Source: Paraspadella gotoi
Lineage: Eukaryota > Animalia > Chaetognatha
DNA length: 64,000 nucleotides
Assembly: GCA_051294375.1 (NCBI GenBank)
Contig: CM119263.1
Span: 11,943,130-12,007,129 of the forward strand
Reading direction: 5' to 3'
Shown: one piece after another, positions 181-64,000 of the stretch
Layout: each line of letters begins with the position of its first letter
Numbering within the stretch: the first letter of the stretch is position 1
Notes under the pieces: model-generated
What the model was told of the DNA's origin: nothing
The model's database searches: none
What the model saw: the letters and a program-made list of their open reading frames with translations, nothing else
Made by a program: the position numbers and the translations under genes

Positions 181-390
181 TGATGAGTCAGAAATATTTA
201 TTATGAGTTAATAACAGACCCGTTAAATATAAGAAGTCCCTGAGCTTCAGATCAGCATGTAACACCGTGTTACAGGCGGGTTAAGGCGCCAGCGGGCGAG
301 AACCCCGCACTTTTCGGTTAAAGAAACGAACGACTTGCCTCCTGCACCAATGGCAGCTGATAAAGTGTTGGTGAATTTTAGTCCACCATA
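181..390 (-). mobile_element. Solo LTR, tRNA-containing TRIM family F1 (diverged)
   Basis: Reverse complement of TATGGTGGACTAAAAT..; flanks aggt/agat. Confidence 0.7.
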
Positions 391-3711: not shown

Positions 3712-3932
3712 TGTGGATCAGGCGCTTAGTGGGCTGAAGACTACTATCCGTAACTTCTATTCCCCCTCAGTAGCCATGGAACGGGTCCTGGGCTTGGAAC
3801 CAGGCTTGAGGGTTTTCCACGCTTATCTATCTTATCTATCATAAGCTGATAGATTTACTCAATAAGCCATCGGGTCACAACTGAAAGTGTCATGCTTATT
3901 AGCGGGGTGAACTAAGGCAATGCCCGACTACA
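3712..3932 (-). mobile_element. Solo LTR, TRIM family E (internally deleted)
   Basis: Homologous to 34698-34983; TG..CA ends; TSD cata. Confidence 0.8.
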
Positions 3933-8417: not shown

Positions 8418-9120
8418 TTAGTCGGATCTTCTTATCAGCAGATCCCGACTCTATAATTCACTTTGTCGGTCTGTCGGTCCACCCCTGCAATCTTGTCGGG
8501 CATTCACTTATATCATGTAGAACATCGAATTATGATAAATTATGCAAAAAAAAAAACGATGTCTATCCATCCATCTGTCTGTCCGTCCGTCTGTCCGTCC
8601 ATCCCACCTTAACAAAAAAAACCAATTACTGTGATTGAACAGGATATGAAGTTTCGATAGAATCGTCCGAGTGGAAATGAGTTTAAATGGAAAAAACAAA
8701 AAAATATATTTCATTATTTGAACACCAATTACTCATGAATGGATGGGGAAATTGACCTTAAATTTTGTATGTGAGTAAGAAAGTGTGTGATTAAGCTGAA
8801 AATCAAGTTTCCATGGAATCGTTTGAGTGGAAATGAGTTTAAAGTGAAAAAAAACAAAAACTAATTGATTATGTTTTTTTTTATTTTAAATGTAAATGCA
8901 AGATGTATAAATTAATCAAATTAATGAGTTAATTAATCAATTAGTCAATTAATTAATCAATTATTAATTAATCAGTCAATTAATCAATCAAAACAAATAT
9001 TTTGGATCAATTGACTAATTAATTAATTAATTTGAATTAATTAATTATTAATTAATTATTTATTATTTATTACAGATAATGATCGTGGGCAGATCCGACA
9101 TTGTTTGCTCAAACTTGTTT
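8418..9120 (+). mobile_element. Helentron-associated (DINE-1-like) HINE; more copies near 4307-5170(-), 9180-10100, 15822-16597, 32170-32730
   Basis: 5' GTCGGATCTGC sub-TIR with palindrome, (GTCY)n, 3' GCAGATCCGAC followed by GTTTGCTCAAAC stem, T-rich flanks. Confidence 0.7.
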
Positions 9121-10536
9121 CATTTTGGACGTATTGCAAAACCGAGAGAACTGAAAAATTGGGCAAGCGAACTACGGTTTTTAGTCGGATCTGCTTATCA
9201 GCAGATCCCGACTCTATAACTCACTTAGTCGGTCCGTCGGTCCCCGCCCCTCAATATTGTCGGGCAGTCACTTATATCATGTCAGAACATCGAATTATGA
9301 TAAATTATGCAAAAAAAAACGATTCCGTCCGTCCGTCCGTTCCGTCCGTCCATCCCACCTTAGCAAAAAACACTAATTACTCGTGATTGGATGGATGGAT
9401 TGGAATGAAATTCTTGTGGTGGGTAGGGAAGTGTGTGAATGAGCTGTATATGAAGTTTCGATGGAATCGTGCGAGTGGAAATGAGTTTAAATGGAAAAAA
9501 TAAAAAATTAAATGTCACTATTTGAAATTTTGTATTTGGGTAGGAAAGTGTGTGATTGAGCTGGAAATCAAGTTTCGATGGAATCGTTTGAGTGGAAATG
9601 AGTTTAAATGGAAAAAACACAAAAAACCTGTTTCACTAATTGATTATGCTTCTTTTTTCTTTATATTAAATGTAAATGAAGGATGTATTAATAAATCAAA
9701 TAATTAATCAGTTAATTAATCAATTAGTCAATTAATTAATCAATAATTTAATTAGTCAATCAATCCGTCCTTCCGTCCATCTTAGCAAAAAGCTCCAATA
9801 ATTCGTGATTGGCTGGTTGGATTGGAATGAAATTTTGTGTGTGGGTAGGACAGTGTGAGATGAAGCTGGATATAAGTTTCGATAGAATCGTGCGAGTGGA
9901 AATGAGTTTAAATGGAAAAAACATAAGTTGCATTTACTAAAATATTTTTACTTATTTTAACCAATAAATACTCTATTTAATCATAATTGGATGGATATTT
10001 TGAGTTTAAATTTTGTGTGTGGGTAGGAAAGTGTGTGACGAAGCTTGATACAAAGTTTCGGTGGAAACGTACGAGTGGAAATGAGTTTAAATAAAAAAAA
10101 TATGAGTCACATTTACTTGAATTTTAATACAAATAAAAATAAAATCGTTTTTTGTCTTTCTTTTATTTATTTTTTAATTATTATATATATTTTTTTCAGG
10201 CGCTGCCTTTCTGAATCGTTTAAAAACGAGTTCAGTCTCTCTCAGTCTCTGTCTGTCTCTCTCTGTGTGCGTCTGTCTCTCTCTGTACCGATCTCTTGCG
10301 TGATCGTTCGTTTTTTGAAAATTCTGATTATTTTTTTTCTTTCTAAAAAAATATATATTTGATCAGGCGCTGCCTTTCTGAATCGTTTAAAACGAGTTCA
10401 GGCTCTCTCCCTCACTCTCCCTCGGTCTCCCTCCGTCTCCCCCCCCTCTCTCTCTCTCTCTCTCTCTTTTAAAAAAAAAAAATTATTCACTTTTTTTTTC
10501 ACCACCGTTACAAGGCGACGAGTAAACGAGTTCCGG

Positions 10537-11525: not shown

Positions 11526-11599
11526 AAAGCAGGCTCGATCCTATTGCTTTTAAGATTTTTTATTTATGATTACTAATAAATGTTAATTAATCAATTAAT

Positions 11600-12175
11600 T
11601 AATTTGAAAAAATGATACAATTTAAAAAATTATGCAAGTTGAAAAAAATATGCGAGTTGAAAAAATTATGCAAGTTGAAAAAATTATGCAAGTTGAAAAA
11701 ATTATGCAAGTTGAAAAAATTATGCAAGTTGAAAAAATTATGCAAGTTGAAAAAATTATGCAAGTCTAAAAAAATTATGCAATTTGAAAAATATATGAGC
11801 TTGAAAAAATTATGCAGTTGAAAAATATGCAAGTTGAAAAAATTATGCAAGTTAAAAAAATTATGCAAGTTAAAAAAAATTATGCAAGTTGAAGAAATTA
11901 TGCAATTGAAAAAATGATGCAAGTTGAAAAAAATGATGCAAGTGGAAAAATGATGCAAGTTAAAAAAATGATGCAATTGTAAAAATGATGTAAATTGAAA
12001 AAATGATGAGTTGAAAAAATTATGTGCATGGAAAAAATGATGCGAGTTAAAAAAATGATGCAAATTGTAAAAATGATGTAATTTAAAAATGATGAGTTGA
12101 AAAATTATGTGCGTGAAAGAATTATGCAAGTTGAAAAAATGATGCGAGTTAAAAAAATGATGCGAGTTAAAAAAA
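11600..12175. repeat. 18-bp minisatellite TTGAAAAAATTATGCAAG
   Basis: Tandem array ending in a HINE 3' end; inverted copy at 4540-4715. Confidence 0.92.
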
Positions 12176-12819
12176 ATATAAAAAAATATTGTGATTTATC
12201 ATCTGATTAGCAGATTACCGTCTCTTAATTATTGTAGGCAGATCCGACATTGTTTGCCCAAACTTGTTTAAATTTTTATAGGTAGAAATAGATATTAGTC
12301 AAAAAATTAGGAGGGCTCGAGATAAGATTATTCACATTTTGTAATTATACTTCTCAATCTCCCATGATTCGCGAAGACGTTGAGCAATTACATCACAAGG
12401 CCGACAAGGTCCGTCTATACTATAGGTCTATTCCGTTGATGGTGTAATTAAACCTTTTGTAATTAGCTCTATCATAGATTAAGTAGGATAATAATTAAAT
12501 AAGATTATTTTCTTGTTGGTTGTCATTTTTTTATCTTTATTTTCTCATTTATCTAAAAAATCTGGGTTTGTAACAAAAAATATTTAAAAAAAAATGATAG
12601 GTATTCATGGTAATTATCCTTCTTTAAAATAAAATTTGTTGCAAAATAAAATCAAACTTTGTTAAAAAAAAATGAAAAAAAAATTAATATAAAATTACAA
12701 AGAAAATCAGTGACTTCGCCAATACGTATATGTAAATCGCTTTCCAACAATAAGCGCGAATAACAATAATAAAATGTTTTATTATAGCTAAAAGACAACA
12801 GTTTTATATCTTATTACAG

Positions 12820-13498: not shown

Positions 13499-14110
13499 GT
13501 AAGGGCCTCAGTTGTTAATTTTTGTTCGGTGAACTTAATTTGGCCGCTATGACTGAGGGAAAAACGTCTTCCAGATATAATGGGAATGATTCAGAGAGTA
13601 AATCTTAAAGAACAGTTCTTGTCAAGTAAATATAAAGTTTCGATGGATTCGTATGAGTGGAAATGAGTTTATTTGGAAAAAAACATTAGTCGCATTTACT
13701 TGAATCTTTTTACTAATTTTACTAATTGACTTGAATTTTCATTATTTTTGCTTACTTACTTATTTAATTAATTCAATTGAAAAAATGATAATAGTTAAAA
13801 AATTTTTTTTTGTACCATAGTAACAGTTCATGTTGATCCTTTGCAAGCGATTTACATGTATTGGCACAGCCATTGGTTTGGTATGGTACGATCGGTTATG
13901 ATCAGTTAGGATCACAAATTGAAAGAATTATCGTCATTTATCATCTGATTAGCTGATCACCGCTTAATTATCGCAATAATTATTGTTATGTGTTAGTGAC
14001 AGAACCGGGACCAATGGCCGCTGATGAACGGTTGGTGAATTTTAGTCCACCATAGTAGGCAGATCCGACATTGTTTGCTCAAACTTGTTTTAACTTACAT
14101 CATTAATTAC

Positions 14111-14308
14111 TGGAACTTTAGACGCGGCGGTAGGCTTGCTACCGGTGATTTAACCGGCCCGTCACTCTTTTTGCAAGGACTAGGGTTAGGACGAGGGCTA
14201 GAACCAGTGACCAGTGGGTTCGGAGAGGAAGCGTTAGCCCAGTGCGCTATTAACGGCGCGGCTTGATAGGAAGGAATAGTCGTATCCATTTTGATTCCGA
14301 ACCCTACA
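14111..14308 (-). mobile_element. Probable solo LTR with tRNA-like A/B box, family I
   Basis: TG..CA ends, flanks ttac/ttat; minus strand TAGCGCACTGG..GGTTCTAGCC. Confidence 0.55.
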
Positions 14309-14515
14309 TTATACAACAAAGTTCTAACAATGGTTTTGAATTGAGTATTTGTTACTAGAGCACATGGCCCAACATTGTAAAATACCTTCCACTGTTTTCA
14401 GTGAAAGATGGGGAGCAAGCTTCAGCTTCAGCCTGGAATCATATGCTCAACAGAAAGGGATAAGGCGCTAAGTGGGCAAAAGATTACTATCAGCAATGGA
14501 ACAAAAATTTTGGCA

Positions 14516-14772
14516 TATGGCAACGGGAGGATAGCCTGTGATACCCGGGGCGCGAGGTATCTCACCAACTGGCGTAGGGCCTGCGGACCCTCAGTGACCG
14601 CCTCCTGTCACTGGCATGTTTATACCGGCACCGTCACATTTAAGCCAGAACCGGGATACCCAGGGATTGAACCCGGGACGCACGGATGGAATGAGATGAT
14701 TTAGCCTGCTCAGCCATTGAGACGAGGCTGAGGACGGACAGCAGTGAGGCAGCTTTAAGTCTTGCTGCCACA
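14516..14772 (-). mobile_element. Solo LTR, family B (257 bp)
   Basis: TSD ggca; minus strand TGTGGC..GCCATA, A box TGGCTGAGCAGG, B box GGTTCAATCC. Confidence 0.82.
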
Positions 14773-14898: not shown

Positions 14899-15132
14899 TA
14901 TGGTGGACTAAAATCCACCAACCGTTCCTTAGCGGCCATTGGTGCAGGAGCCAAGTCATTCGACTCCCAACCCAAAGGTCCTGGCTTCTAGCCCGGTGGT
15001 CATCTCGCAGTTAAGAGGGACAGGGGGCTTAACCCACCTGTAACACGGTGTTACTGCCTGATCCGCAGCTCAGGGACTGCTTATATTGAACGGTTCTGTC
15101 ATTCACACATAACAATAATTACTGTCTCCTCA
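14899..15132 (+). mobile_element. Solo LTR, family F1
   Basis: TATGG..CTCA; TSD attt. Confidence 0.85.
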
Positions 15133-16827: not shown

Positions 16828-17027
16828 TGAAGAGACAGTAATAATCATTTTGAATTAATGACAGAACCGTTCAATATAAGCAGTCTGAGTTTCAGATCAG
16901 GCTGTAACACCGTGTTACAAGCCCCATCCCTCTTAACTGCTAGGAGACCACCGGGTCGGGAGACAAATGACTTGCCTCCAGCACCAATTGCCGCTGATGA
17001 ATGGTTGGTGGATTTTAGTCCACCATA
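16828..17027 (-). mobile_element. Solo LTR, family F1
   Basis: TSD atac. Confidence 0.85.
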
Positions 17028-27872: not shown

Positions 27873-28367
27873 TCTAAAAAAGAATTATACTTTCTTATGT
27901 TAACTTTTTGCAAGGAATCCAAATCCGATCTTAAAATTTAAAAATTTACATTTTGAAATTTTAGCCTATTATATACTTGATACTATATATAGGTTTTTAA
28001 TTTCATGTTTTATATGCTAAAGTTTAATTTTCTCAAATTTTATCATTTTCACATCTCTCTACTCTATAATATAGAGTCGGGATCTGCTGAAAAATATTCA
28101 TTAAATTTTCGTTGCGCTAATCAAAACATTTTTCTGCTAAAAAATCTTCAAAATTCAAGTCGCAAAATAATATTTGTGCCATAGTAACAATTCAGTTTAA
28201 TCCCTTGAAAGCGATTTATATGTATTGGCGCAGCAACTGGTTCATAATCTGGTATTGCTTGCTCAAACTTTTTTGTACAATAATGTCATTTCTAAAATTT
28301 ATCCTTTACCTGTTTAGGTGAGTAATCCTGTGAAGTAAGGCATAGTAAAATTTCTAAATTTAACCAA

Positions 28368-28890
28368 TATGGTGGACTAAAATCCACCATCCGTTCATCA
28401 GCGGCCATTGGTGCCGGAGGCAAGACATTTGCCTCCCAACCCAAAGGTCTGGGGTTCTAGCCCGGTGGCCGCATTGCAGTTAAGAGGGATGAGGCTCTTA
28501 ACCCGCCTGTAACACGGTGTTACAGCCTGATCCGAAGCTCAGGGACTGCTTACATTGAACGGTTCTGTCATTAACACATATCAATAATTACTGTCTCTTT
28601 ATTGGTGAGCCTGACTTCCGAACACAACATCAACAACAACACTTTCAGGCGACATGCCTCAACCTGGTGATGCACTTTCCGCCAACAACACATCAGGCGA
28701 CATGCCTCAACTTGGTGACGCACTTTCCACCAACAACAACAATTCACTGAGGAGACGCAACAGACTTCTCCCTATGGGAGGGGGGAATGTTTGGTGGACT
28801 AAAATCTACCAACCGTTTATCAGCGGCCATTNNNNNNNNNNNNNNNNNNNNNAGGTCCGGGGTTCTAGCCCGGTGGTCGCCTAGCAGTTA
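28368..28890 (+). mobile_element. TRIM family F1: LTR 28368-28601, PBS 28603-28611, PPT 28776-28787, second LTR (gapped and truncated)
   Basis: Direct repeats flank TGGTGAGCC and GGGAGGGGGGAA. Confidence 0.85.
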
Positions 28891-29382
28891 AACCGATTCC
28901 GTTTTGGAACTACAAAGAAAGTACTACGTAGTTCAAATCATTAGAACGCCGAATTTAGCCTAAGCTTTGTATGCGTGATCCGGGCCTCATAAGAAATGAC
29001 TGAAAAAACCATAGACTCGGCGGTATCATAAGAATACCGAAGTAAACAAAATAAAGGTGAAAATACATTATTTTTGAACGATATATGTAAATCTATGTAA
29101 AACTACGCCGGTCATGACAAGATACGACCGTAGCCGTGGGACACGACGAGATGATATCCGGATCCTGCCTCGTCCGTTTCTCCGCGAAGAATATCTTTTG
29201 AAGGANNNNNNNNNNAATGAACAACATTATATTTATGAACATTTCTGTATAAAAATATTTTATTACAAAGTTTACAATTTATGCATTACCATTAGGCCAT
29301 ATTTATACGGAGTACTAATCCAATTTCAGAAGATTTTTTTGCAGATTTGGATTTGTCATAAAATGTTGATGAAAAGAAATAT

Positions 29383-29585
29383 TGTGGTGAATCTTAAATT
29401 CGCCACCCGTATAGCTTGGTGCAACTCAGCTCATCCCATTGGCTTGGACAGCAAAGTACTCGTTCACCAACCGTGAGTTCCGGGTTCAATCCCCTCACGG
29501 TCATGCTGGTTAAAGTGTGATGGTGTTGGCATAAACATGCCGTTGAATGGTGTGATCACTGCAGGTCCAAAGCCCTGAGCGCCAG
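29383..29585 (+). mobile_element. Probable tRNA-containing LTR, family H (3' end unclear)
   Basis: TGTGG hairpin start, TCAGC, B box GGGTTCAATCC; interrupts another repeat. Confidence 0.55.
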
Positions 29586-31544
29586 TTATATTTTCTTTTA
29601 TCAACTTTGGACAAGGAATTCAAATCTGCAATCAAAATTAAGAAAAGCTTATTTTAATTTCTTTTTATTTTATAAGGATAATTCTATATATAAATATAGC
29701 CTAATGTAGGGTATTGCACAAAAATGTTAAAAATACTTTTTTTCTTCATTCGATTGATTTAAACCTTATATTAAGCCTTACGAAGTGTACTTTAATAATT
29801 AATTGGCAGTTTTGTTTTTTAAATATGGGAATTACGCCAACTGATTGACGTCAATTTGTAGTTACCTTCCTGCCTCGTTACTGCTGTCAAGGATATTCAA
29901 CTAAAATTTTTAAAAAACGCTTTTTTCTAATTAAGAATATATTGTAGTATTGCATTCAGCTTTGATTTCTTTTTTTTTACATTTTTGTTGGCGCTGGTGG
30001 TGTAAAAACTACGCCAAAACGTATTATTTTCTATTTAAATATGTGGCGTTAATGATTTTTGCAATGAAATTTTTAAAATTTATCAAGTTAAATAATTGTA
30101 AATGTATATATTTAAAATTTGAAAATAAATTGTGGCGTAAAATGGCGTGAAAGGAAGGTAAAACCGTTTAATATGATATCCAGATGTGGCGTAAAGACTT
30201 TCTGATTATTTTCTGGTAAAAGCTATTCAGTTAAGTGGTTTTAAAGATTTATCCGGCATTTTTTATACTGATGTGGCGTAGAATGGCGTAAAATAATCAA
30301 GAAACCATATAACTACTATTTAATTTTGTGGCGTAAAGGGTTTTAGTTTATTTTCTAATAAAAACTATTCAGTTAAGTTGCGTTAAAGATTTATTCACCC
30401 TTTTTTTATACAGGTGTGGCGTAGAATGGCGTAAAACAATCAGAAACCATATAAATATCATTTTATTTTGTGGCGTGAAAACTTTTTTTCATTTTCCAGA
30501 TAAAACTATTAAGTTAACATGCTCTGGCATAGAATGGCGTAAATTGACGTAAAACTGCGCCACTTAATCCTCTCATCTCTTTCCTTTTCCTCCTTTTCTT
30601 TTGTCTTTTATTTTTATACAATCTCCGATTCTATTTTTCGGTTTTATTTCTTTAAAATCATAGAAAAACCAAATACCGAAAATAAATCTCAAATCCTAGA
30701 TAAAAAGAAAACAAAGAAACACCCACATAAAAGCCAGTGGACCAATTTTACTAAAAGTATCAGAAATTGTGGATCCACAATGGGTCTTTAGGTTTATGTT
30801 TGAAATTGGTTAAAAATACAAACTATAATAAAGAAATTACCCATATATAATAATTACAGGTATCATGTATATTTTAGCAAAGGAGGAATGATTGTAAGCA
30901 GAAAAAAAGGGACGATAAATCTTAAAGATCATAATAAATATATTATATCAGTTTCATACATATTAATGATTCATAGGCCTTAATATACAGTAGGAAAGAT
31001 TATATAAAATGACTATCGCCAGAACTGCTGCTGGCGCATTTTTGCGCATCATTTTTGGGAATTAACAATGATAATTTGTTGAAAGAAAATACATTTGCAT
31101 CTCCTGTAACCAGAGGTTTTGCGAGGAAAGCCTAGTTTTTGCGCTACAATAAAAAGAAATATTGCTTTCTGTACTATTTCAATATTTTTATTATTTAAAA
31201 TATTCTTTTTCGATTTTTTGTTAGACTTACACTTGCCCTACCTACATTCAAAAAATAAAAATTTTCTTTTCAGTATTTTCCATACAGTAAATATTTCAAA
31301 AAGCCTTGTTTTTTGGTATCAAATTCCCTATTATTTTTCGGCCGATAGAGAAATAAAAATTTCGTCGAATACTGCTAATCCCTACCTAATGCAAAAATTA
31401 AATAACATAAAATAAATTTTTTTATAAATTAATGTTCACTAATAGTATGTTTTACATAATTAACTTTTAGAATTATAGTACATAATTTTCCCTATGCTCT
31501 ACTGTATCTAGTATCCAAGTATCTAGTTTTAACTTTATTTGCAG

Positions 31545-34697: not shown

Positions 34698-35402
34698 TGT
34701 GGATAAGGCGCTACGTGGGCTGAAGATGACTGTCCGTAACTTCTATAACCCCCTCTAGCAGCCATGGAACGGGTCTTGGGCTTGGAACCAGGCTTGAGGG
34801 TTTGCCATGCCCCCAAGGCGGCTTACGGTCGTCCTCAGGCTTCCTGCAGGGTAGGTACCGGGTTGGGATTGAACCCGGTACCTAGTGGTCATGAGCTGAT
34901 GGCTTTACTGAATGAGCCACCGGGCACAACTGAAAGTGTCCATGATTCTAGGCGGGGTGAACCTAGGGCAATGCCTGACTACATGCCCCCAGATTGTAAA
35001 CCCACCCTGCACTGCTTTCAGTGGAGGAGGGGAGCAATCTTCAGCTAGACCAAGGGCCTGGAATCAGAAGGTTGGAATACCGCTCGACAGGATAGGCTCA
35101 CCAGTGTGGATAAGGCCGCTACGTGGGGCTGAAGATGACTGTCCGTAACTTCTATTAACCCCTCTAGGCAGCCATGGAACGGGTCCTGGGCTTGGAACCG
35201 AGGCTTGAGGTTTGCCATGCCCCAAGGCGGCCTTACAGCCATCCTCACGCTTCCGCAGGGTAAGGTAGCGCGGGTAGGGATTGAACCCGGTACCTAGTGG
35301 TCATGAGGCTGATGGCTTTACTCAATGAGCCACCGGGTCACAACTGAAAAGTGTCATGATTCAGTCTAGGCGGGGTGAACCTAGGCAATTTGCCCGACTA
35401 CA
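34698..35402 (-). mobile_element. Two-LTR TRIM family E: LTRs 34698-34983 and 35105-35402
   Basis: Minus-strand PBS TGGTGAGCC at 35095-35103, CTGGGGGCA before the 3' LTR, tRNA-Met-like core in the LTR; no matching TSD. Confidence 0.82.
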
Positions 35403-36469
35403 TATAGTACTATCCTTATAAGATCAAAAAATTTCAAAAAAGGCTCTTCTTAATTTTGATTGCAGATTTGAATTCCTCGTTAAAAATTAATAACAGAAAA
35501 TATAAATCATTTTTAAAAATTATTTAATTAAGTGGGTAAAAAATTTAAAAAAATCTATTTAATATGTAAAATTTTAATTTTCAGTTTAAAAAACAAATTT
35601 TTTTCTATATTTGATCAACTTAATGAAAGAATTTTTTAAAAGAGTTATATTTCTTTATATCAACTTTTCATGACGAATCCAAATCTGCCAAAAAATCTTA
35701 CAAAAAACTATTTTGTAATTTTAACATTTATTGAATTAGTACTAGTATAAATATGGCATATTGCGTAAATTGTAAAATTTATTATAAAATTTTTTTATAC
35801 ATAAATGTTCATTAGTATAATGTTATTCGTTCCTCACTTTTAGAATTTTAATTAAAGTTAAATTTAGAATTTTTACTACGCTTTACTACACAGGATTACT
35901 CACCCAAACAGATAAAGGATAAATTTTAGAAATAACAATATTGTACAAACAAGTTTGAGCAAGCAATACCAGATCTGCCCCTGATCATTTACCGGTAAGA
36001 ATCTAATCAGATTATAAATCAGTTCTACGCCAATACATATAAATCGCTTTCAAGGGATTAAACTGAATTGTTACTGCGGCACAAATATTATTTTGCTACT
36101 TGAATTTTGAATATTTTTTTAGCAGAAAAATTCTGTTTGTCTGTCTGTCCGTTCGTCCGTCCGTCCCAACTGAGCTTTGAATGCTAATTACTCATGATTG
36201 TATTGGGCGATTGACTTAAAATTTTGTATGCCGGTAGGAACGTGTGTGATTTAGCTGGAAATAAAGTTTCGATGGAATTGTCCGAGTGGAAATGAGGTAA
36301 AATGGAAAAAATAAAAAAAAACTATTTCACTATGAAATTTATTGAACCAATATAAAAATTATCTATTCATATACTAAATAAGCTATCTTGCCCCTGACTT
36401 TGGACAGGCTTTGGTGGTTTTAGGCCTTCATCACTCTTACAAGATAATGACATAGCAAATCCATGCAAG

Positions 36470-36672
36470 TGAAGAGACAGTAATTATTGTTGTGTTAGTG
36501 ACAGAACCATTCAATATAAGCAGTCCCTGAGCTTCGGATCAGGCTGTAACACCATGTTACAGGCGGGTTAAGCGCCCCATCCCTCTTAACTGCCAAACGA
36601 CCACCGGGCGAATGACTTGCCTCCGGCACCAATGGCCGCTGATGAACGGTTGGTGGATTTTAGTCCACCATA
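36470..36672 (-). mobile_element. Solo LTR, family F1
   Basis: TSD caag. Confidence 0.85.
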
Positions 36673-40163: not shown

Positions 40164-40908
40164 TGAAGAGGCCTGGTTCTTACAGGGCGCCACACCGCAG
40201 CGGTGTCACCGGTCGTGGCGACAGCGAGACTGCATGTTCATGTAGTCGCAGAGCTTTGGATATGGCAGTAAGGCCAATGCCTACAGGCGGTTACCCGGTC
40301 ATCCGCACTTTCTACATGGACAGCTCAGGGCTCGCAACCAGGGACGCACCATTGGATGGTGGCATTAGTCCGCACTGAGCCACGAGCGCCGCCTGCGAAG
40401 AAACAGCTTTAATCTCTGTGTGGATAGGGACACAGACAGCCGCCCAGACTCTCGGCATATGAGAGCGAAGCACGGGGGATGAAGCGCAATGTCTCTCCGC
40501 ACTGAACCTCTCTTCATTCTGGTGGCCTTGCTTTGAGTGCAGCATGTGTAGCTCAAACCACATCAGGGCAGAGGAGTATTTCATGCCCGGGTTGCCGTGT
40601 TCGGGATCACGTCGGGCTCAGCATTGAAGAGCTGGTTTTACAGGGCGCCACACCCCGCAGTGGGGGGGGGGGGGGGGGGGGAGGGGGGGGGTTGTCACTC
40701 GTGGCGACAGCGAGACAGCATGTTCATCGTAGTCCGACTTCTGGATCTGGCAGTAGCCCATGCCTACAGGCGGGTTACCCGGTCCATCCCCTTTCTAATG
40801 ACAACCTCGGCTCGAACGCAGGACGCACATTGGATGGTGATTAGTCACTGAGGCCCTGGAGGCGCTGCGAAAGAAAAGCTTTTCCAATCTTGTGATAAGG
40901 ACCACAGA
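40164..40908 (-). mobile_element. Complete TRIM family C: LTRs 40164-40438 and 40625-40908
   Basis: Direct repeats, TSD acat, PBS matching the tRNA-Trp 3' end (atcacgtcgggctcagca, 40606-40623). Confidence 0.85.
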
Positions 40909-43980: not shown

Positions 43981-46874
43981 CATTGATATCGTTTTGACCC
44001 TTTGAAAACGTTATCAATCACATGAAAATAAATTTTTTTTTGCTTACAACATCAATTTTTTATTGAAAACTGACTTTAGATTTAAATAAAATTAGCAAAA
44101 TAGTTTTTTATGATATTAAAACATGATCTACTCTGATAATAATTGAATAAAAATGTTATGTTAGAAAATTAAATAAAACAAAAAAAATAGCCAAAAACCC
44201 GAAATTTCATATTTCAGCAACTTTAACACCCCTGGCTCGGGCGAAAACTTTTTTTTTTTTTCAAATTAAACTTACATAGTTAAAGAGCTTTAAAAAACGA
44301 AAAGAATGACACCCAGACTGATTGCTTAATTAAAATATTGTCGGATTCAAATGTGTCTACTGGTCAACAAGCCTCTCGGCAGACGAATGGTAATGAGCCA
44401 CTCAACGGACGATGTGGCTCGGAGGGTGTTTTCATCTTCCTCAAGAAGTCGTTTGGGAAGACAGCCTCTCCATCACGCCTCTGGAGAATGGAGGTCGTGC
44501 CTCTATTCCCTCGCGGGGGTGTTTCCTTAACGTCCTCTCCGCGCGCTCGTCAACTTCCCCAGCCTTTTTGACGGTGGAGTTCAAGGCAGTCCCGCGGCGG
44601 TTCAGCTACTCAGGGCAGTGGGCTTTTTTCTCCGCCAGGAGTCGATCCTCGCCCCGGTGTTTTTCTCTGGGACGGCTTGCTTCATCAGACCTCGCTTCTT
44701 CCCTCCAAGTTGGATTCAATCCGGAGTTTAGCGTCCTCCAGTCTTGCTCCGGAGCGTTCAGTCACATGCCTCTGAAGCCACTCTCGCAGTCCCGCTTCTC
44801 CAATGCTGCTCTGCCGGGATTCGGTGGGAAGTTTTCCGCGTCTATCGCTCCGAAGTGGATCTCAATCGCCCGACATCTCTGGATCCTCAAGCGCTGGAGG
44901 AGCTGGAGTGGTGCTCGACGCTTCACCCAGAAGACTGCGTCGTGCCAGTGGAAGACCTGATTTTGGAGGTTTGCGCCCACTTTGTGATGATGGACCCATA
45001 ACAGGAGGGTTGGGGCTTCCTCTTTCAGGCCGAGTTTTACCAGGGGACCCGAGAGGCTGCAGATGCCCTTCACCATTTCAACGTGCAGGAGTTCATTGTG
45101 TTGAGGAACTCCCTCTTGATTCGGCAGTTCTCTACGATACACCATTCTCCCTTGGCTGACATTTTGGTTTCACTACTGTCTTCAGCGCACGTGCAGCCAC
45201 TCTTGATCACCCACTCTCTCGGGATCTGCATCACCGGGAGTCATGTTGTCGGAGGAGAGCTTGGTGACAGAGGGGACGCCTGGTTGCGTATTGGAATCTC
45301 CTTTGGCGAATCTTTGGTCAGATCTGCGAGACCTTCGGCACTCTTTCCATCGACCTCTGCATTGAAGGATTCGGCGCAGTTGCGCCGCTTCTCTTGAAAG
45401 GTGGAGGCATTAGCTTTGGGAGGTTCAAATGTTTCCTCCTTGGGATGCGGCGTTGGTTCTATGCGTTTTGGAGGTCGTCGCAGTCTCCCGCTCACATTCT
45501 TCGTTCTCGCTTTGACCAGGAGGCCGTCGGAATCGTCTTGCTTAGGTGCGACCACTCCAACTTTTTGCTCGCTGCAGACCAGACTTTCTATTCCGTCCAG
45601 GCCTTCCAGGATAGATTGGGTCAAGCACATGGTCCCGTCATTCTAGGTGGACGCCCTCCCGGCGTCATCGCGTTGCCCCATTGAAGCTCTAAGGAGTGGC
45701 TTCGAGTCCGCGAATCTTTGGCGCCCATTCACGTGTTCCTTTTCTGCGCCCCCTCGCCGCCTTTTGCTCCTCTCGCCCCAACATTTTGCGGCGATGCTTA
45801 AGGCACTATTTTTGGAGGCAGATGTTGATGCCCCACCAGGTTCTACGCGCGCCATGGCAGTCTCTGAACCCTTCGCTCGCGGCGTCGATCTCGGCGTCTT
45901 CCTCAGGGCCGGAGACTTGTCTGGAGACCAGACGTTTTTCCGATTCTTTCGTAGGGACATCTCATGGGGCGCTTTGGTTGGCGTTTCTTGGGACTAGCAG
46001 CAGCACTTCGATACTTTTTCGTTTGTCTTTTGTTTTTCTGCTTTACCTGTCTGGTCACAGCGCGGTGTCTCGCCTTTTGGAGAGACAAAAGGCTTATGTG
46101 GGGGTGGTTTTGATAAGAATCATAATTTGGGGATGTGCATCGTTTCTAAACTATTGAGTATTTTTAAATAAATTTGGTACCGACGATAGGGAATTTAAAA
46201 TACTATCTATATGCAAAATTTCATAAAATCGGATAATCCGTTCAAAAAGTTTATGGCAATAAAACAGTCGCCGAAAATCGCGCTTCAAATCGATCAACTT
46301 TCGCTTAAAATCGAACTCGTTTGATCCAATAAGGATTATGAACTATTGTAGTACTAAGCTTTAAACCGATAATAGCGGATTATGCGCCGAACCGCGGCCT
46401 CATAAGAGAAAATAGAATAAGCGAAGCCCGAAAAAAGGAATCCTTACAAAATTAATCACAAAAATAACATAATTATAACAGAATAAAAAAGGGAAAAGAC
46501 AAGAGAGCCAAAGAAGTAATAATATTGAAAGTATATTGACTGATCTCACCAGCAAAACTACTATTAAACTAACTCAATTTAATATCGTTAATTCAAGATT
46601 AAGAATTCACTATCGTCACTTCACGATTAATTTTCATTTTTGAATCATTTTAATTTTATGATAACAGATTTTAATATGATAGCAATAAAACTATAATTAA
46701 AAGATAATGATTGATAATGGTAAGTAAATTGATGCAATGAATAAAATTAATTAACTAATGATGATGACGATAGTTTAATATCTAAAATTTGTCATATCTG
46801 AATCCGGCTTATTTTATTATGAACAAGTTTGAGCAAACAATGCGATTTGACTAAGATAATTTAGCGGTAATCAG

Positions 46875-47370
46875 TTAAAAAGTATGCAAGTTGAAAAAGT
46901 ATGCAAGTTGAAAAAAGTATGCAAGTTGAAAAAGATATGCAAGTTGAAAAAGATATGCAAGTTGAAAAAGAATATGCAAGTTGAAAAAAGTATGCAAGTT
47001 GAAAAAAGTATGAGCATACTTTGAAAAAAGTATGCATACTTTGAAAAAAGTATGCCATACTTTGAAAAAGTATGCATACTTTGAAAAAAGTATGCATACT
47101 TTTAAAAAAGTTAGCATACTTTGAAAAAAGTATGCATACTTTGAAAAAGTATGCATACTTTGAAAAAAGTATGCATATTGAAAAAGTATGCATACTTTGA
47201 AAAAAGTATGCATACTTTGAAAAAAGTATGCATACTTTGAAAAAAGTATGCATACTTTGAAAAAAGTATGCATACTTTGAAAAAAGTATGATACTAAAAA
47301 AGTATGCATACTATATGCATACTTTGAAAAAGTATGCATACTAAAAAATGCTTTGAAAAAATATGCACGA
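46875..47370. repeat. 18-20-bp minisatellite AAAAGTATGCAAGTTG / AAAAAGTATGCATACTTTG
   Basis: Tandem array switching to a palindromic unit near 47010. Confidence 0.92.
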
Positions 47371-48158
47371 AACTTTGAAAAAAGCAATCAAAAAATGCAT
47401 GGTCTTAGAACAAAAAAAAATTGAAGGCTTGACTATGCAGTTTTCACTAAAAACCAGTTCATTTGATTGCTTTATCAAGCATTCAAGATTGCAAGAATTT
47501 AAACTTTTCTTTTTTTTATCTAGTAGAGAAGACAAAAAGCTATCCGAAACCGTACTGATATGTATGATTTGTTCTATTTTACAAAAGATCATGCAGGTTT
47601 TTTGGGAAAAGGGAAAAAACGGTCTGACCAGTTCATTTAAATACCATTTTGGGCATGATAAAATGGGTATTTCGATCGCGCTCTACCTCCGTTGGCTTCC
47701 CAGACGCCAAGCTTTCGAAATCTACCCATATTGATATAATTTATATGGGCCTTGACTATGCAGTTTTGAATAGAAGTGAAATATAAAGGAATCTTGATCG
47801 AACTTCGATTCGAACGATGCGCAGCCCTACATAATTCCATTCAGAATTAAAGATTTTCAGCTTTTCTGATATTTGACCGACTTAATGAAAGAATGTTTAA
47901 AAAAGAGTTATATTTCTTTATATCAACTTTTCATGACGAATCCAAATCTACAAAAAACTTTTGAAATTTTAACATTTATAGGATTAGTACTATGTTTAAA
48001 AATGGCCTACTGCGTAAATTGTAAAATTTATAATAAAGTTGTTTTATACATAAATGTTCATTATTGTAAAGAATAGTTGTACGTTTACTGGATAGCTGAA
48101 ATACACTGCATAGTCGTACGGGCACTGCTTACGGCGTCGTCGATATTTGTTTGAGTTG

Positions 48159-50568: not shown

Positions 50569-51940
50569 GTGCTGATGACGAATTTCTTGTTTAACACTGG
50601 CAAATATGCTCACGATTCTTTGACCGCCAAGACAAACACGTCGTCCAAAGTGCAAGTCCATTGCGAAGCGATCAACTTGACATTTGATCCCAGTAAGAGA
50701 TGAATTATTGAATTTACTATGTTTTATTTTTTTTTAAATTTTCGTTACTTTTTAATAGACATGACGGATTTAACGAATTCAACGTCGACGCTCTTCCACG
50801 AGATGTGGAATTTACAAAACACTTGTCCGTTTTGGCTCCTACTTTTAGTTTTTCCATTGATTAATTTAAAATCCGCTACCTTCTTCACCAAATTCAACGT
50901 GCTCGGAACTTGTGAGTGTCCAGATGATTTTCTTTATTATAAATGCTTTGATCGATACTTCACTGACTCACTTAATGATTTTATTTTTTCAAGTTTCCAT
51001 CTTGTATTTGTTTTTCTTCGTCTTTTATCACGCCGTTAAATGGGGACCCTGCGTAAAATTTGATCAATCAAATAATTCCGTTGTTGGTGAGGACTGAGGA
51101 TTCACCATTAATTCTATTACGCCAAATCGTAATTGGTTTTTATTTTCGATGATATTTTTTTAGAGTTCAGCTCATCTTTCCCCGCCCTGTGCGGTACGCT
51201 GTCGTTGGCCATGTTTATCCATAACGGGGTCATGGCTATTCTTCGGAATCAGAAAAAGCCACAAAACAACACGCGCGACCTTTCAATTGCTTACATTCTC
51301 GTTACGATTACCTACATGTACGATTCTACAAACTGAATCTCACTTTGAACTCCGGTTTTCCAAATGTTATTTCCATGCCCTAGGTTCGTGGGCGTGGTTT
51401 TCTACGTTGCCTTTCCGCACTACGACAAGAATCTTATTCCAGACAATTTCCTCAACTTCTTTCCTCCCAACGACGTGTTTAGCGTCGTCGCCCGTGCCTT
51501 TCTTCTCTTGCAGATGGTCTGCGTCTTTCCTCTGCTCATCTACATTCTCAGGATTCAGGTTCAATTAATTAACTCATCACCAAATAATTTTTTTGACTCA
51601 ATTGTTTACTTTTTCCTTCATCCTTCATCCTTTTTTCGTCATCTCTTAGGTGATGCACACCTTTTTCAACTCCGTCTGGCCCTCTCTCTACCACGTATTG
51701 ATTTTCAATGCGTTTCTCCTGGGAATCTGCGCCACAGTGGCTTGCCTCTACCCGTCGGTCGGGGATATAATTCGCTATGCTGGTTCGCTGTGCGGCCTGG
51801 CGCTCGTCTTCACGCTGCCGAGCCTGGTTCACATGCTCAAACTTCGCGAAGACGAGAAGCTGACGTGGGAGGCGCTGGCCGTTCACGTGGGCCTCATCCT
51901 CTTCGGCGTCGCCGTATTCGTCTCGCAGTTCTTCGTTTGA
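50569..51940 (+). CDS. SLC38A9: SLC38A9-like lysosomal amino-acid transporter, 3' six exons (50569-50692, 50759-50911, 50994-51086, 51164-51317, 51384-51558, 51650-51940)
   Basis: VLMTNFLFNTGK, NLKSATFFTKFNVLGT, LSLAMFIHN, NQKKPQNNTRDLSIAY, IPDNFLN, IIRYAGSLCGL; all introns GT-AG and in phase. Confidence 0.9.
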
Positions 51941-53322: not shown

Positions 53323-56300
53323 ATGGCGTCCTACCACAGCAGCGTGCCGCCGTCGATGGTGGCCAAGGATGCCAAATCGGAGGCGAGTGCGGCCGCGGCG
53401 GTCAAAGACCTCGACGACGCCTCCAAGAAGCAGTCGCGCGAGGATTGGCGCAAAGTCAAGGAGTTGGAGGAGATGAGAAAGGCCGGGACCGCCCCGGCCG
53501 CCGTCGACGAGGAGGGTCGCGACATCAACCCCCACATCCCCCAGTACATCGTGTCCTGCCCTTGGTACGTCGGAATTACTCGCCCTACTCTCACGCATCA
53601 ACGGCCTCAGGTCAGCAAATCATTGTTTGTTTTTAATTGTTTCTGAATTAAATTTTAATTCGCGTCTATGCTATTTTTACGTTTCATCGTTTACTTCTAT
53701 AAATTTATAACCAACTCATTTATATAATCAACCAATTTATTTTTGTCCTTCCGCAGAAAGAGAAGCAACACCAGTTCGCCCGTATCGAGGACACTTACGA
53801 CCGGGGACTTAAAAACGATGTTGCGCTGAAGTTTCGCAAAGGCGCCTGTGAAAACTGCGGTTCAATGTCGCACAAACGAAAAGACTGTATGGAGAGACCC
53901 AGAAAAATCGGGGCGAAGTTTACGGGTACTTTGGTCAATGAACGGCTTTAAGAAAAAAAGTCATTCAGTTCAACTTCAAAATAGGCCAAAATGGATTACA
54001 AATTCAGAAAGCTGAGCTCCTGCCGATTCCGAAAATGTATTCACTTTAAACATTTGATGTATTCTACGCCATTTTATATCGGTTCAACAGAGTCGAAACA
54101 TGTACTATGTAAATAAAAATCGTTGTATTGGCAAACAATAAACAATTCCTAATATCGGTTTTAATTATAATATAAAATAAAAGAAACCTATCTGAAGAGT
54201 TGCAGGTCAAACGAAAAGGCCAATCCATCTGATATTTTTTATGAATTTTTTATTACTGAATTAGAAAAATGTAATAGAGAGACATTTTTAAATTTCAACT
54301 TGTATCCTTGAAAATGAAATGTTTTTAAACTTTAACCCTGAATTCTTTCTAACTGGAACACGTTTATCAAAATGTCTCTCTATTACATTTTTACAAATGT
54401 TTTTAAGATTGTTAATCAAATTTTTAATTCAATATTATTGCAGTCGTTTAGGCTGCAACTCTTCAAATTCAGTATAGATTCATTGTTGCTCAAATTTCTT
54501 TACCATCTATTTAACTGAAGATTTTGTTCATGACTGGAAAACCAACAGAGTAACGAGATTGTTTAATTCTCCCCTTCTAAACTAACCCATACCGTGTTTT
54601 AACTTCTTACCTAGAATTTTTTAACAACCAGATTGAAAAACAAATCTTTAAAAAATGTGCTTACCCATTTAACTTAACAATTTTGTTATTTACCCATTTA
54701 AAAAAAATTATTAAAAACAGAATGTTTACATATGAATAAAAACTTATTTTTTTGTGATTACTGATGATTATAATGTATTTCTCGATATATTAGCTCTAAT
54801 ACATCAAGGATTACGTATTGTTATGCTGAATGACCTTTCCTCTTAACTTAGATTTTTTAGTAATGGGGTAGTGCGGGGTAATTCGGAACAGGGGTAATTC
54901 GTAACACTGACATATAAATTGAAATAAAAAAATTGTTGAGATATTTTAAAATATTTTTTGGTGCATTAAATATTTCAACAACCTGACATACCATTATTAA
55001 GGTTACTTTCCGCTGCTGCTGCAGCAGCTTCAGCAGCAATTTCAAAGCTGCTAGTCGAATTTCGTCTTTGAGTAGTCGTTTTCAAGCCTCTGTCAGTCAT
55101 ATTTGACCATCCCAACGTTCCTTGGATCAAAAGCAGTTCAAGTGAAATCCTTTCTCTCTTCACTCACTTTTAGCTTGCTCGACTCTTCCTTCTACTCGAG
55201 CAAGCTCCTCCTACTCCCTTCGAGCTTTGATCGCGTACGTTGGGCGTGAGCTGTCTCTGCTCGTGGTATCGCTAGCGTCGATGTGACCCCCCCCCCTTCT
55301 AAAAAGGGGCGAGGAGGGCGGAGTCTATTAAGGATGAGCTTGTGACGGATGAGGATTCGCGGAGCCGACGTACGAGCGTAGGCCGTTGGACGCCGAATCC
55401 GTCAGTGCGACTCCTTGATCAGCTTGCGCAGAAGCAGCACCAGCAGATGCGGCAGTCGGCGATGATAGCGATGACGAGGACTCCGACCGTAATTGTGGGC
55501 GCAACATTCTGCCATGTCGCCCTTTGCATGAACTCGTGATCGAACATGAGCGCCTCGGAGTGCTTCAACATGAATTCACCCACGTCCTTGAACAGGTCTC
55601 GTACGACGGTTCGGTTCGGGCACAGTTTCTCACAGAATTTTATTCTCTATACTAATGCCTTTGTAGAAAATCTTTTGTATTTTCTATGCCTGCGGGGTCG
55701 CGCGTTCGAGGCGTCGGCCGTCGGATGAACAGATTTTGACAAGGAGCAAGGATTTCGTAGTATCTTACTAAATCTCGAAGCGTAAAGAAAAACGTCGAAA
55801 AATGTAGAATAAATTGTAAATTATTTGTATTTTTGTAGAGATAAATCCATGGCAAATCAATGAAAAGTCGAAAAAATGTTTGTAATAAATCCTTGGATCC
55901 GTAAAAACTACGGTTCCAGACGGCCGATGTTTTCTTTAAAAATGATTCTGATCGAATAACAAGTGACGAGGTTTTCGGCCGAAAGAAAGCCACAAGAAAG
56001 CAACTAGAACGGTGAAAAGATAAGGTCAGCTAAGGTCAACTTAAGGCCTGGGATCACTGGCCAAAAGTTAAAATTAGGATTAAATAAAGCTTGTTTTCGA
56101 AAAGTAGAGGTCCAGTCCAGTCCAGTCTTCGAATCCATTGCTGTTTTTTCGAATTTTATAATACTATATAAAATAAAAGAAACCTTTCGGAAGAGTTGCG
56201 GCCCAAACGGCTAAGCGGATTTTCATGAAATTTTACATAAATTTACTTGAGGACAAGGGTCCCAATTCTATGAGAGGGATTTTTCAAATTCACTTATCTT

Positions 56301-61993: not shown

Positions 61994-62039
61994 GTTACGA
62001 TCACGAACCTCAGTTTTAGTCCCTCCTTACGTACATGTA

Positions 62040-62515
62040 CATTAAGGCGTAGTAAAATTTCTAAATTTAACTTAATTAAAATTATAAAAGTGAGGAACGA
62101 ACAACATTATATTAATGAACATTTATGTAATAAAAAAATTTATAAATTTTACAATTTACGCAGTAGGCCATATTTATACTAGTACTAAACCAATAAATGT
62201 TAAAATTTCAAAACAGTTTTTTCAAAAAATTTTTTGCAGATTTGGATTCGTCATAAAAAGTTGATAGAAAGAAATATAACTCTTTTTGAAAAATTCCTTC
62301 ATTAAGTGGGTCAAAAATTAGAAAAAGCTATATTTTAAGCTGAAAATTAATTTTTTATATATTAAATAGTTTTTTTCAATTTTTAACCCACTTAATGAAA
62401 GAATTTTTAAAAATGATTTATATTTCTTTTATCAACTTTTGACGAGGAATTCAAATCTGCAATCAAAATTAAGAAAAGCTTTATTTGAAATTTTTCGATT
62501 TTATAAGGATAGTAC
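62040..62515. repeat. Abundant AT-rich dispersed repeat (copies or relatives near 2541-3152, 20030-20410, 26410-28055, 33860-34330, 35403-35990, 47850-48060)
   Basis: Shared blocks such as GCAGATTTGGATTCGTCAT and TTCATTAAGTGGGTCAAA. Confidence 0.8.
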
Positions 62516-64000
62516 TGTGGACGAACAAATAGAACATGCAACCTCGGTCAAACCACTTGACCTTAACAACCTGACCCCGCTCGTTTCCCCAGTTTATTTG
62601 TGGTCAAAATGTTGACCTTTGTAAATACCATTGTAATAGACTTAGCATCTGAGCATTTTAACTGTTATTGTTTATACCATGTTGAAGAATAATTCATTCT
62701 TGATCTGAAACTTGTCGTCCATACGTGGTAAGCCCGACGTGAAAAAACATAAAAAATAAAACGAAAAACAAAAAACAAAAGAAAAACAAAACAAAAATAA
62801 AAACTCAAACGAAATAAATTTTTACGCGTTTTTGCCATTTTGTAAATCTTTTTTTTTTTTTACAGTGAACAACTTAAAACCTGAATCAATTCTTTTTTTT
62901 TTAATGCCACGATCGTACCACCTGAGCGTCACCCGCCCTCCAACGCCTGCCGACGAAGAGGAATCGACCATGCCTGTAACAACACGCAACGCCTCTCAAT
63001 CCGACAGCGCTGGCCGCGACGACGCCTTCCACGACGCCGCCGCCTCGACGTCCGCGACGCCTCTCGAATTGCAAATCGAGAGTCTTTTCCAAATGGTCTT
63101 CGAGATCAACAGAAAACTCGCCGCGGTCACGGAAAGGCCCAATCCCCCTTCAGCGGACGCAAGCACCGCTTCAACGGAGTTGCCTCCATCGGTGGAAGAC
63201 GGCGCCAGTGACGCCACCCCCACAGGCAACCCGACCCTCTCACGCCCTCCAGCGCCTTCCAGCGCTTCAGCAAGAAGGAGAAATCCCAAGCTGACGACCT
63301 TCGACCCAGACCACATCGAGGAGTGGCAAGACCACGCCGCTGTGGAATTCGGCGCCACCGGCGTCACCGAGCCGGCGGAGAAGAAGGCGCTCATCCTCAG
63401 CGCCATCCCCATCTCCCGCCACCGGCTAATCCCACATGGTCTCCGCATCGACGAAGGCCCTGAAGCTTACAAAAATTTGATTCTCCACTTGCAGAAAATT
63501 TATGGTGAGGATGCCAACAGACGTGCCGCAAAGGCGCTGAAGATGACGTCACTGAAAGGCGTCACTCCTTCCCAGCACCTCTCCGCGATCGACGCCGTCT
63601 TGGAAGGTCTCACCATGGACCACATCAAGGCTGCCATCTTGGCTGCCTCCCTCCCTCAAAGCGTCAGGGAACACGCCATCAGGAAGGATAAAAAACCCGC
63701 CGACATCGCCAAAGACGCCGACGAATTTTTCCTTCAGGCCAGCTTCGCAGCTCTGACCGCACTTCATCCTCAGTGAATGCCGTCACTTTCAGTGAGGTCA
63801 CAGTGGACGAGCCACTGGAGCTTCTTGATGAATCGGCAAGCAACGCTGATGACGCCGCCATCTCCTACGCAAACGCAGTTTGCCGGCCGCCGCCGCGCTC
63901 AACGCAGTGCCCTGCCCCGCAGCAATGCCCATCACAGCAGCGCACGCAGCAGCAACGGCGCCCAACATTAACGCCCCGCTCCCCGCCACACCGTGAACCG
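62516..64000 (+). mobile_element. Gypsy LTR retrotransposon (CsRn1-like): LTR 62516-62723, PBS 62726-62742, gag ORF 62832-63776
   Basis: TGTGGACGA..TCGTCCATA LTR, PBS TGGTAAGCCCGACGTGA; Gag KLTTFDPDHIEEW..F..GVT..PSQHL resembles CsRn1-type (DUF7041-like) Gag. Confidence 0.82.

Follow-up and report, generated by a model that had tools for sequence, protein, structure and literature searches.

The closest described relatives of the locus analysed here are the Helenus elements (TRIMp3), tRNA-promoter TRIMs defined by tRNA-derived sequence in their LTRs that includes a box A (TRGCY, YGG) and a box B (GGTTC) (Kojima 2024, PMC10886601). As described in that report, these elements are non-coding and shorter than 1 kb, have two LTRs with a tRNA-like A/B-box stretch, a primer-binding site (PBS) as well as a polypurine tract (PPT), make a 4-bp target site duplication (TSD) in animals, leave many solo LTRs, and are proposed to use a Gypsy helper; two gall-wasp families are primed by tRNA-Trp. 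No ribozyme is described for Helenus in the available text of the report, which has zero mentions of twister and names ribozymes only by way of retrozymes. Plant LTR retrozymes are likewise non-coding, Gypsy-dependent LTR elements with a PBS, a PPT and a 4-bp TSD, and they carry one small self-cleaving ribozyme in each LTR (Cervera 2016, PMC4918200). Their ribozymes are type III hammerheads, their primer is tRNA-Met, and no tRNA-derived promoter is described for them in the available portions of the two sources (PMC4918200, PMC7761336). Their unit RNA is ligated to a circle, which lets a tRNA-primed reverse transcriptase (RT) rebuild two LTRs (PMC4918200, PMC7761336).

The non-LTR retrozymes of animals contain dimeric type I hammerheads with a short, palindromic stem III and a small palindromic loop, which do not work singly but are active as a dimer in tandem copies; these elements are tandem repeats without LTR, PBS or PPT (PMC7761336, PMC4209133). 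In Schistosoma, twister variants with a weak or missing P1 stand at the 5′ end of the autonomous non-LTR element Perere-3, in a single copy and in P1-type order, and twisters without P1 still cleave, inefficiently (PMC8501958). Eukaryotic twisters are mostly without an assigned job, and the only link to a retrotransposon that we found in print is to this non-LTR element. Full-text literature searches (twister with LTR, SINE, TRIM, Pol III or retrozyme), from which most subscription papers fell outside the scope, returned no twister-bearing LTR element, the available text of PMC6765202, PMC12471100 and bioRxiv 10.64898/2026.07.22.740005 included.

The window analysed here is a stretch of 64,000 nucleotides of AT-rich animal DNA with spliced genes, and contains a two-LTR copy of an element family termed F1. 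Our main reading, to which we assign a probability of about 0.68, is that F1 is a Helenus-type TRIM whose LTR combines a tRNA-like head with a predicted twister ribozyme, by which the transcript would likely be cleaved in each of the two LTRs. An earlier, sequence-only reading of the locus is supported by the analysis but was incomplete: tRNA-headed TRIMs are already described, as Helenus, and the predicted twister is the new feature. The two-LTR copy has the following parts.

28368..28601, + strand: 5′ LTR of F1 (234 bp); termini TA...CA in the family, but this copy ends in TA
28369..28390, + strand: 5′ terminal hairpin within the F1 LTR (fold z -4.3)
28401..28473, + strand: tRNA-like head with acceptor-like arms; A-box-like 28409-28420, B-box-like 28453-28463
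28603..28615, + strand: PBS of tRNA-Trp type
28634..28738, + strand: internal tandem duplication, 2.2 x 48 bp, 91%
28776..28787, + strand: PPT of 12 purines; 2 nt, then the 3′ LTR
28790..28891, + strand: 3′ LTR in part, with an N gap at 28832-28852; broken off at TTAA immediately ahead of the twister core
28892..29205, no strand assigned: unrelated repeat interrupting the 3′ LTR; a second N gap (29206-15) comes next, then host repeat again

The order of parts is the one that had been proposed from the letters: a first unit, then TGGTGAGCC, which begins at 28603 after a 1-nt spacer, an internal sequence with a duplication of roughly 48 bp, a G-rich PPT and a second unit. The internal part (28602-28789) measures 188 bp, where about 185 bp had been given, and by this layout the element would be 234 + 188 + 234 = 656 bp long, the second LTR being sequenced only in part. 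This second unit does start, at 28790, but is not whole, being broken by the N gap and stopping at 28891 against another repeat. In two runs the interrupting repeat extends upstream into different sequence, which marks it as a piece of some other element; since the host repeat resumes past the N gap at 29206-15, the missing part of the 3′ LTR may sit within that gap. No gap interrupts the sequence from unit 1 through the internal part to the first 42 bp of unit 2. No ORF of 150 aa occurs in the element, and no target duplication is visible for it. Over the sequenced part units 1 and 2 are identical at 73/81 positions (~90%), no closer than unit 1 is to solo copies (205/234 and 188/203 identical), and the copy is therefore old. 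An AT-rich dispersed repeat at 27875-28364, 29216-29690, 35400-36130 and 62043-62516 hosts or abuts F1, F2, F3 and a Gypsy-like element, and these are nested insertion sites.

Elsewhere in the window the F1 unit stands alone five times, as had been counted, in four near-complete copies and one internally deleted fragment.

36470..36672, - strand: solo F1 LTR with 4-bp TSD; best-preserved twister layout; tRNA head internally deleted
14899..15132, + strand: solo F1 LTR with 4-bp TSD; twister decayed
16828..17027, - strand: solo F1 LTR with 4-bp TSD; head and twister each carry deletions
181..390, - strand: solo F1 LTR, flanks matching at 3/4 positions; deletion in twister
13974..14054, - strand: F1 LTR fragment, internally deleted

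The solos run TATGG...CA, with a 3′ CA in 4/4 full copies. The TA terminus that had been reported is the family's 5′ end, and the TA with which unit 1 closes on its 3′ side is peculiar to the two-LTR copy. An exact 4-bp TSD flanks three of the four full solos (chance 0.0055 per site), the fourth being the one with the 3/4 match, and a 5-bp duplication occurs at none of the four. Contigs of organism A leave the reference at 28368 in 155, 80 and 35 cases (runs X1, X5 and X9) and behind 28599, with CA first, in 128, 67 and 36 cases (same runs), each time into unrelated flanks. Its exact TSDs and its sharply defined termini across many contigs mark the repeat as an LTR and not a SINE, as the sequence-only reading had held; the recurring junctions described below point the same way. 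Classification as a SINE, for which a 5′-terminal head, a simple-repeat tail and a long TSD of variable length would be expected, was rejected on three features, a head that starts 33 nt inside the unit, a CA end without a tail and a constant 4-bp TSD. The termini are TA...CA, and TG...CA is absent, but TA ends occur in some published Helenus consensus sequences and in CsRn1, so the F1 termini do not exclude membership among TRIMs. With two direct LTRs, a length below 1 kb, no coding capacity, a PBS and PPT placed by the LTRs and a TSD of fixed length, F1 is almost certainly a TRIM.

The core of the LTR had been described as cloverleaf-like. Arms GCGGCCA and TGGCCGC are present at 28401-07 and 28466-72, but the predicted fold has two inner arms, and no tRNA was recognised by ARAGORN (0 tRNA genes in the 64-kb window) or, for F1, by Rfam. 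The A box is close but inexact (TGGTG..AGG) and the B box exact, with a spacing of 44 nt (43-45 nt in the other families described below); a B-box scan of the window gave seven sites, two in the F1 two-LTR copy and five in other units, of which two are the LTRs of the F2 element described below. Judged by these boxes, the head is likely a Pol III promoter and no functional tRNA. The sense strand of 28368-28891 contains no run of four T, which is weak evidence alone, and 21 of these bases are N. Pol III transcription is not validated for Helenus either in the available text of PMC10886601.

Compared by eye with the complement of the 3′ end of honeybee tRNA-Trp in Fig. S2 of Kojima (2024), the PBS of this copy agrees at 11/13 positions, and its first 9 nt are common to F1 and F2. 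By its tRNA-derived boxes A and B in the LTR, its 4-bp TSD and a tRNA PBS shared with Gypsy, F1 fits Helenus, with which it also shares the further traits listed above, down to the tRNA-Trp primer of the two gall-wasp families. F1 differs from Helenus, as far as the report describes it (PMC10886601), in a head placed within the LTR's 5′ half and not followed by a T-run, and in a 5′ terminal TA. Five F1 motifs had 0 matches in Helenus Data S1, a file in which line breaks can hide a match, and F1 is accordingly not a listed Helenus family; the host is likely new for Helenus. Four variants of the twister L4 motif had no match in the Helenus LTRs and one in an internal region. In two LTRs of Data S1, the gall-wasp Helenus-2_SyJa-LTR and Helenus-2_SyUm-LTR, both tRNA-Trp-primed, we saw by eye behind the tRNA head what we take to be a type III hammerhead core. 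Hammerheads in these two LTRs are not mentioned in the available text of PMC10886601, and the cores, as sequence, suggest a broader pattern that has gone unremarked.

Downstream of its head, the F1 LTR contains the features of a predicted ribozyme.

28476..28549, + strand: predicted P5-type twister; P5 28476-80/28545-49, GA+3 nt 28488-92, palindromic linker 28493-98
28476..28549, + strand, same predicted twister: UAA 28499-501, GC 28505-06, P3 28507-25, P4 28526-30/28539-43, L4 28531-38

Three hairpins had been seen in this part of the LTR, and the LTR is indeed strongly folded, better than 200/200 shuffles (z -5.4). That description was incomplete, as the hairpins appear to be parts of the predicted twister, in which, in permuted order, P5, P2′, GA+3, the 6-nt linker, UAA, P2, GC, P3, P4 and a loop of the form U+3+AAGC follow one another, with a predicted cut site in unit 1 after 28499 (U^A). 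Similar P3 and L4 occur in the Schistosoma twisters at Perere-3 (PMC8501958). The layout and the T2 pairing were put into a descriptor, which follows the table of twisters published for Schistosoma (PMC8501958) and was written after the F1 sequence had been seen. The solo at 36470-36672 fits it in full, and the 5′ LTR fits with 2/3 T2 pairs formed; among shuffles of those two LTRs, 1 and 3 per 100,000 are full matches, and 7 and 6 are relaxed ones. The descriptor also found a previously unnoticed unit at 29519-29578, which belongs to a different family, F3. In unit 1 one T2 position and one linker position are unpaired, and most contigs differ from the window copy at these two positions. Among the 40 contig variant rows (≥5%) listed of 42, none falls at 28488-89, 28499-506, 28531-33 or 28535-38, which are the GA, UAA, P2, GC and L4 AAGC positions.

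The full layout is kept in only 1/6 other F1 copies. P2 amounts to just two clean pairs in F1, together with a mismatch or bulge, and is ambiguous in F2; folded to minimum energy, the F1 core takes a structure other than that of the twister. With Rfam, neither the three F1 copies searched nor, at E 10, the whole window gave a twister, and F1 gave no hammerhead; its other matches lie below the cut-off and were taken as chance. Since Rfam scans miss the F1 twisters, animal repeat libraries may contain others. A minus-strand hammerhead (CUGAUGA at 28395-401) was considered and dropped, there being no GAAA before the element end. We hold it highly probable that the twister motif is real, and likely, with somewhat less assurance, that the ribozyme is active in intact copies.

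The same arrangement of a tRNA-like head and a twister recurs in the window in further units.

34698..35402, - strand: complete two-LTR element of family F2, 705 bp; PBS starts TGGTGAGCC; each LTR with a tRNA head and the twister layout; no TSD
3712..3932, - strand: solo F2 with 4-bp TSD
29382..29590, + strand: LTR-like unit of F3, ends approximate, carrying a tRNA head and a twister
about 14355-14772, - strand: relative of F3 (about 14440-14772) with tRNA head and twister
about 14105-14260, - strand: fourth unit, decayed, with tRNA head, twister-like stretch and palindromic linker; ends approximate

The two F2 LTRs are identical at 270/281 positions, and F2 has a run of four T early in its LTR. 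F3 has the cleanest twister, with a 4-bp P2, and its unit aligns over the full length of Rfam Twister-P5 with 16 bits and E 0.42, the gathering cut-off being 37.6 bits. The F3 copy at 14772 continues as an LTR end and an internal region that resemble those of F2 and in which the PBS was apparently deleted between two short direct repeats. Between F1 and F2 or F3 there is no blast similarity below E 0.05, and the T2 pairs differ in sequence across eight copies, as CCG opposite CGG or TGG, CCA opposite TGG, and TCC opposite GGA, where published twisters have CCC and GGG. One T2 position is unpaired in 3/8 copies; all three pairs form in the solo at 36470-36672. In a MAFFT alignment of the eight copies, 85% of 68 cells are paired, with 13 double changes, and 0/500 shuffles scored as high, although these are related copies in an imperfect alignment, and related sequences can beat shuffles; slid controls gave 13-49%. 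By pseudoknot, T2 has 90% of its cells paired and double changes in 2/3 pairs, and T1 75%, with F2 misaligned at T1 and one T1 position paired in only 4/8 rows. Some of the double changes could be CpG decay. Three sequence-unrelated families share the twister layout, with covarying pseudoknot pairs, and F1 to F3 place predicted twisters in the LTRs of several mini-retrotransposon families.

In all families the P1 linker between GA+3 and UAA has six or eight bases and is palindromic. Its central tetramers are GCGC and CCGG in the best-preserved copies, with GGCC inferred from two decayed copies. A monomer would have 1 bp of P1 and two clean P2 pairs in F1, and 2 bp and four pairs in F3, where the P5-type layout has at least 2 bp of P1 and a 4-bp P2. 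The two inner linker pairs, impossible in a monomer hairpin, are nevertheless complementary in 13/16 cells, which suggests a dimeric twister. Folded as a swapped dimer, free of knots and with a P1 of 6-8 bp, the sequences lie 11.7 (F1) and 15.1 (F3) kcal/mol below two monomers, energies in which neither the pseudoknots nor the cost of joining two strands is counted. By this analysis the chances that the twister depends on a dimer, like the double hammerhead of the animal non-LTR retrozymes, are about even; since a twister without P1 still cleaves, dimer dependence is only a hypothesis. The palindrome predicts a dimeric twister as the counterpart of the double hammerhead, none of which was found in the literature searched, where phrases for a dimeric twister led to only one, unrelated paper.

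Under the main reading, Pol III would start at the head of the 5′ LTR and read through the whole element, which the lack of a run of four T on the F1 sense strand makes possible. The two LTR copies would then swap halves into a double twister, the 6-8-nt palindromic linker being too short for a stable hairpin, and cleavage at U^A in both LTRs would release a unit RNA of 422 nt in F1 (28500 up to the matching site of the 3′ LTR) or 410 nt in F2. This RNA, having no terminal redundancy, would be closed into a circle by a host ligase, a step that the analysis allows us to propose only tentatively. A CsRn1-like Gypsy RT, primed by tRNA-Trp, would copy the unit RNA into two-LTR DNA, and the Gypsy integrase would insert the copy with a 4-bp duplication. 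Plant LTR retrozymes have such a cleavage-to-cleavage unit RNA (PMC4918200), and circles are shown for them (PMC4918200, PMC7761336), whereas for F1 both are only predicted. Folded as a circle, the F2 unit is only modestly stable (z -2.2, 61% paired, 2/100 shuffles as low). F1 may work like an LTR retrozyme but is no member as defined, since Rfam finds no hammerhead in it and it has a twister layout instead; its layout joins the tRNA-promoter TRIMs to the ribozyme-bearing retrozymes, of which those with LTRs come mainly from plants. It is possible, if somewhat doubtful, that animals have a whole undescribed class of ribozyme-bearing Pol III mini-LTR elements, with several abundant families in one genome, a domain-swapped double twister, a circular unit RNA and a tRNA-Trp-primed Gypsy RT. 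If so, little activity would be expected of solo LTRs and of the completed circle, and the gall-wasp Helenus elements, with a hammerhead core in the corresponding position, would be a convergent branch.

The twister could instead substitute for a terminator: each ribozyme would fold alone, only the 3′ copy would cut in time, and a linear RNA reaching from the 5′ head to the cleavage site of the 3′ LTR, with a terminal redundancy of ~100 nt, would be copied by ordinary strand transfer and form no circle. Something must set the 3′ end of an F1 transcript, the element having no Pol III terminator; twisters without P1 cleave inefficiently (PMC8501958), the minimum-energy fold masks the ribozyme and could spare the 5′ copy, and the F2 circle is only modestly structured. 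We nonetheless regard such a terminator role as unlikely, because it leaves unexplained both the self-complementary inner linker, present in 13/16 cells and in all four families, and why only one of two identical ribozymes should cut.

Less probable still is that F1 is an ordinary Pol III TRIM of the Helenus kind, its twister-like stretch being an inactive relic or a structured packaging or promoter element. Rfam misses the twister, P2 is weak, and most copies in the window are damaged, all of which this simpler account would accommodate; decay of old inserted copies is, however, expected anyway, and the pseudoknot covariation across unrelated families, together with the constant core positions, is the expected trace of selection on catalysis, as the main reading of a cleaving twister has it.

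The two junctions of the F1 element recur at other loci in records from public runs of three studies of organism A, of which the richest run is possibly the source of the window itself. The LTR-PBS junction is bridged by at least 31 letters on each side in 5/27 listed records, with 10-23 differences from the window copy, and one LTR-PBS junction record comes from organism B (run X10), at low depth; the PPT-LTR junction is bridged in 6/32 listed records, with 8-12 differences. Joints that go back by 48 bp occur in 4/4 runs and show an extra 48-bp unit at other loci. The sequence-only reading had staked its case on further two-LTR copies with this internal region; that there are none is unlikely, both junctions recurring elsewhere, although no single contig among the listed records of these runs spans LTR, internal part and LTR. 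That two adjacent SINE copies or an assembly join merely mimic a two-LTR element, as the gapped, incomplete second unit, the 73/81 identity of the units and the missing TSD at this copy might suggest, is very improbable and largely refuted by the gap-free sequence from unit 1 into unit 2, the recurring junctions, the tailless solos with their constant 4-bp TSD and the complete F2 element of the same layout.

A possible source of the RT and integrase lies at the end of the window.

62516..64000, + strand: gag-bearing LTR element; putative LTR 62516-62723, TGT...ATA; PBS from 62726

The PBS pattern has three matches in the window, against 0.05 expected. The third, at 40611-40623 on the - strand, has one mismatch in TGG. 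The reading frame of the element with the PBS at 62726 was assigned by an Atlas feature search to retrotransposon gag (0.95; 130/256 features shared), while the gag-like ORF has no Pfam match and no homolog among longer proteins, and in the part of it inside the window a CHCC motif was not seen. From the sequence of this one partial copy, the element is a candidate for the helper lineage and CsRn1-like. The CsRn1 clade is described as having tRNA-Trp priming, a 4-bp TSD and TGT...ATA or TGT...AAA ends (PMC2582038, PMC3630058). F1 shares with it the tRNA-Trp primer, the 4-bp TSD and one non-CA end; CsRn1 elements are autonomous and protein-coding, in contrast to F1, whose TA end is on the PPT side, and are thus a likely helper and not the family of F1. 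With termini of TGT...ATA and TA...CA, respectively, each of the two elements has a CA-3′ and a TA-3′ integrase end, in opposite arrangement.

The candidate helper stands behind the last matched exon of a Slu7 gene (53323-62017, + strand) with at least six exons and a 7-kb intron; its six exon matches are identical to one transcript at 281/360 positions (78%) and to those of eight animals at 58-67%. In two quick trees the clade of that transcript is separate from the groups included, which were arthropods, molluscs, an annelid, a nemertean, a brachiopod, fishes and echinoderms. Just upstream, at about 50570-51940 on the + strand, lies a likely amino-acid transporter gene with short introns and a weak Aa_trans match. 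Minisatellites of 18 and 20 bp and a 117/156-bp repeat family with AATT-rich microsatellites occupy 11580-12200, 46870-47390 and 8600-10130.
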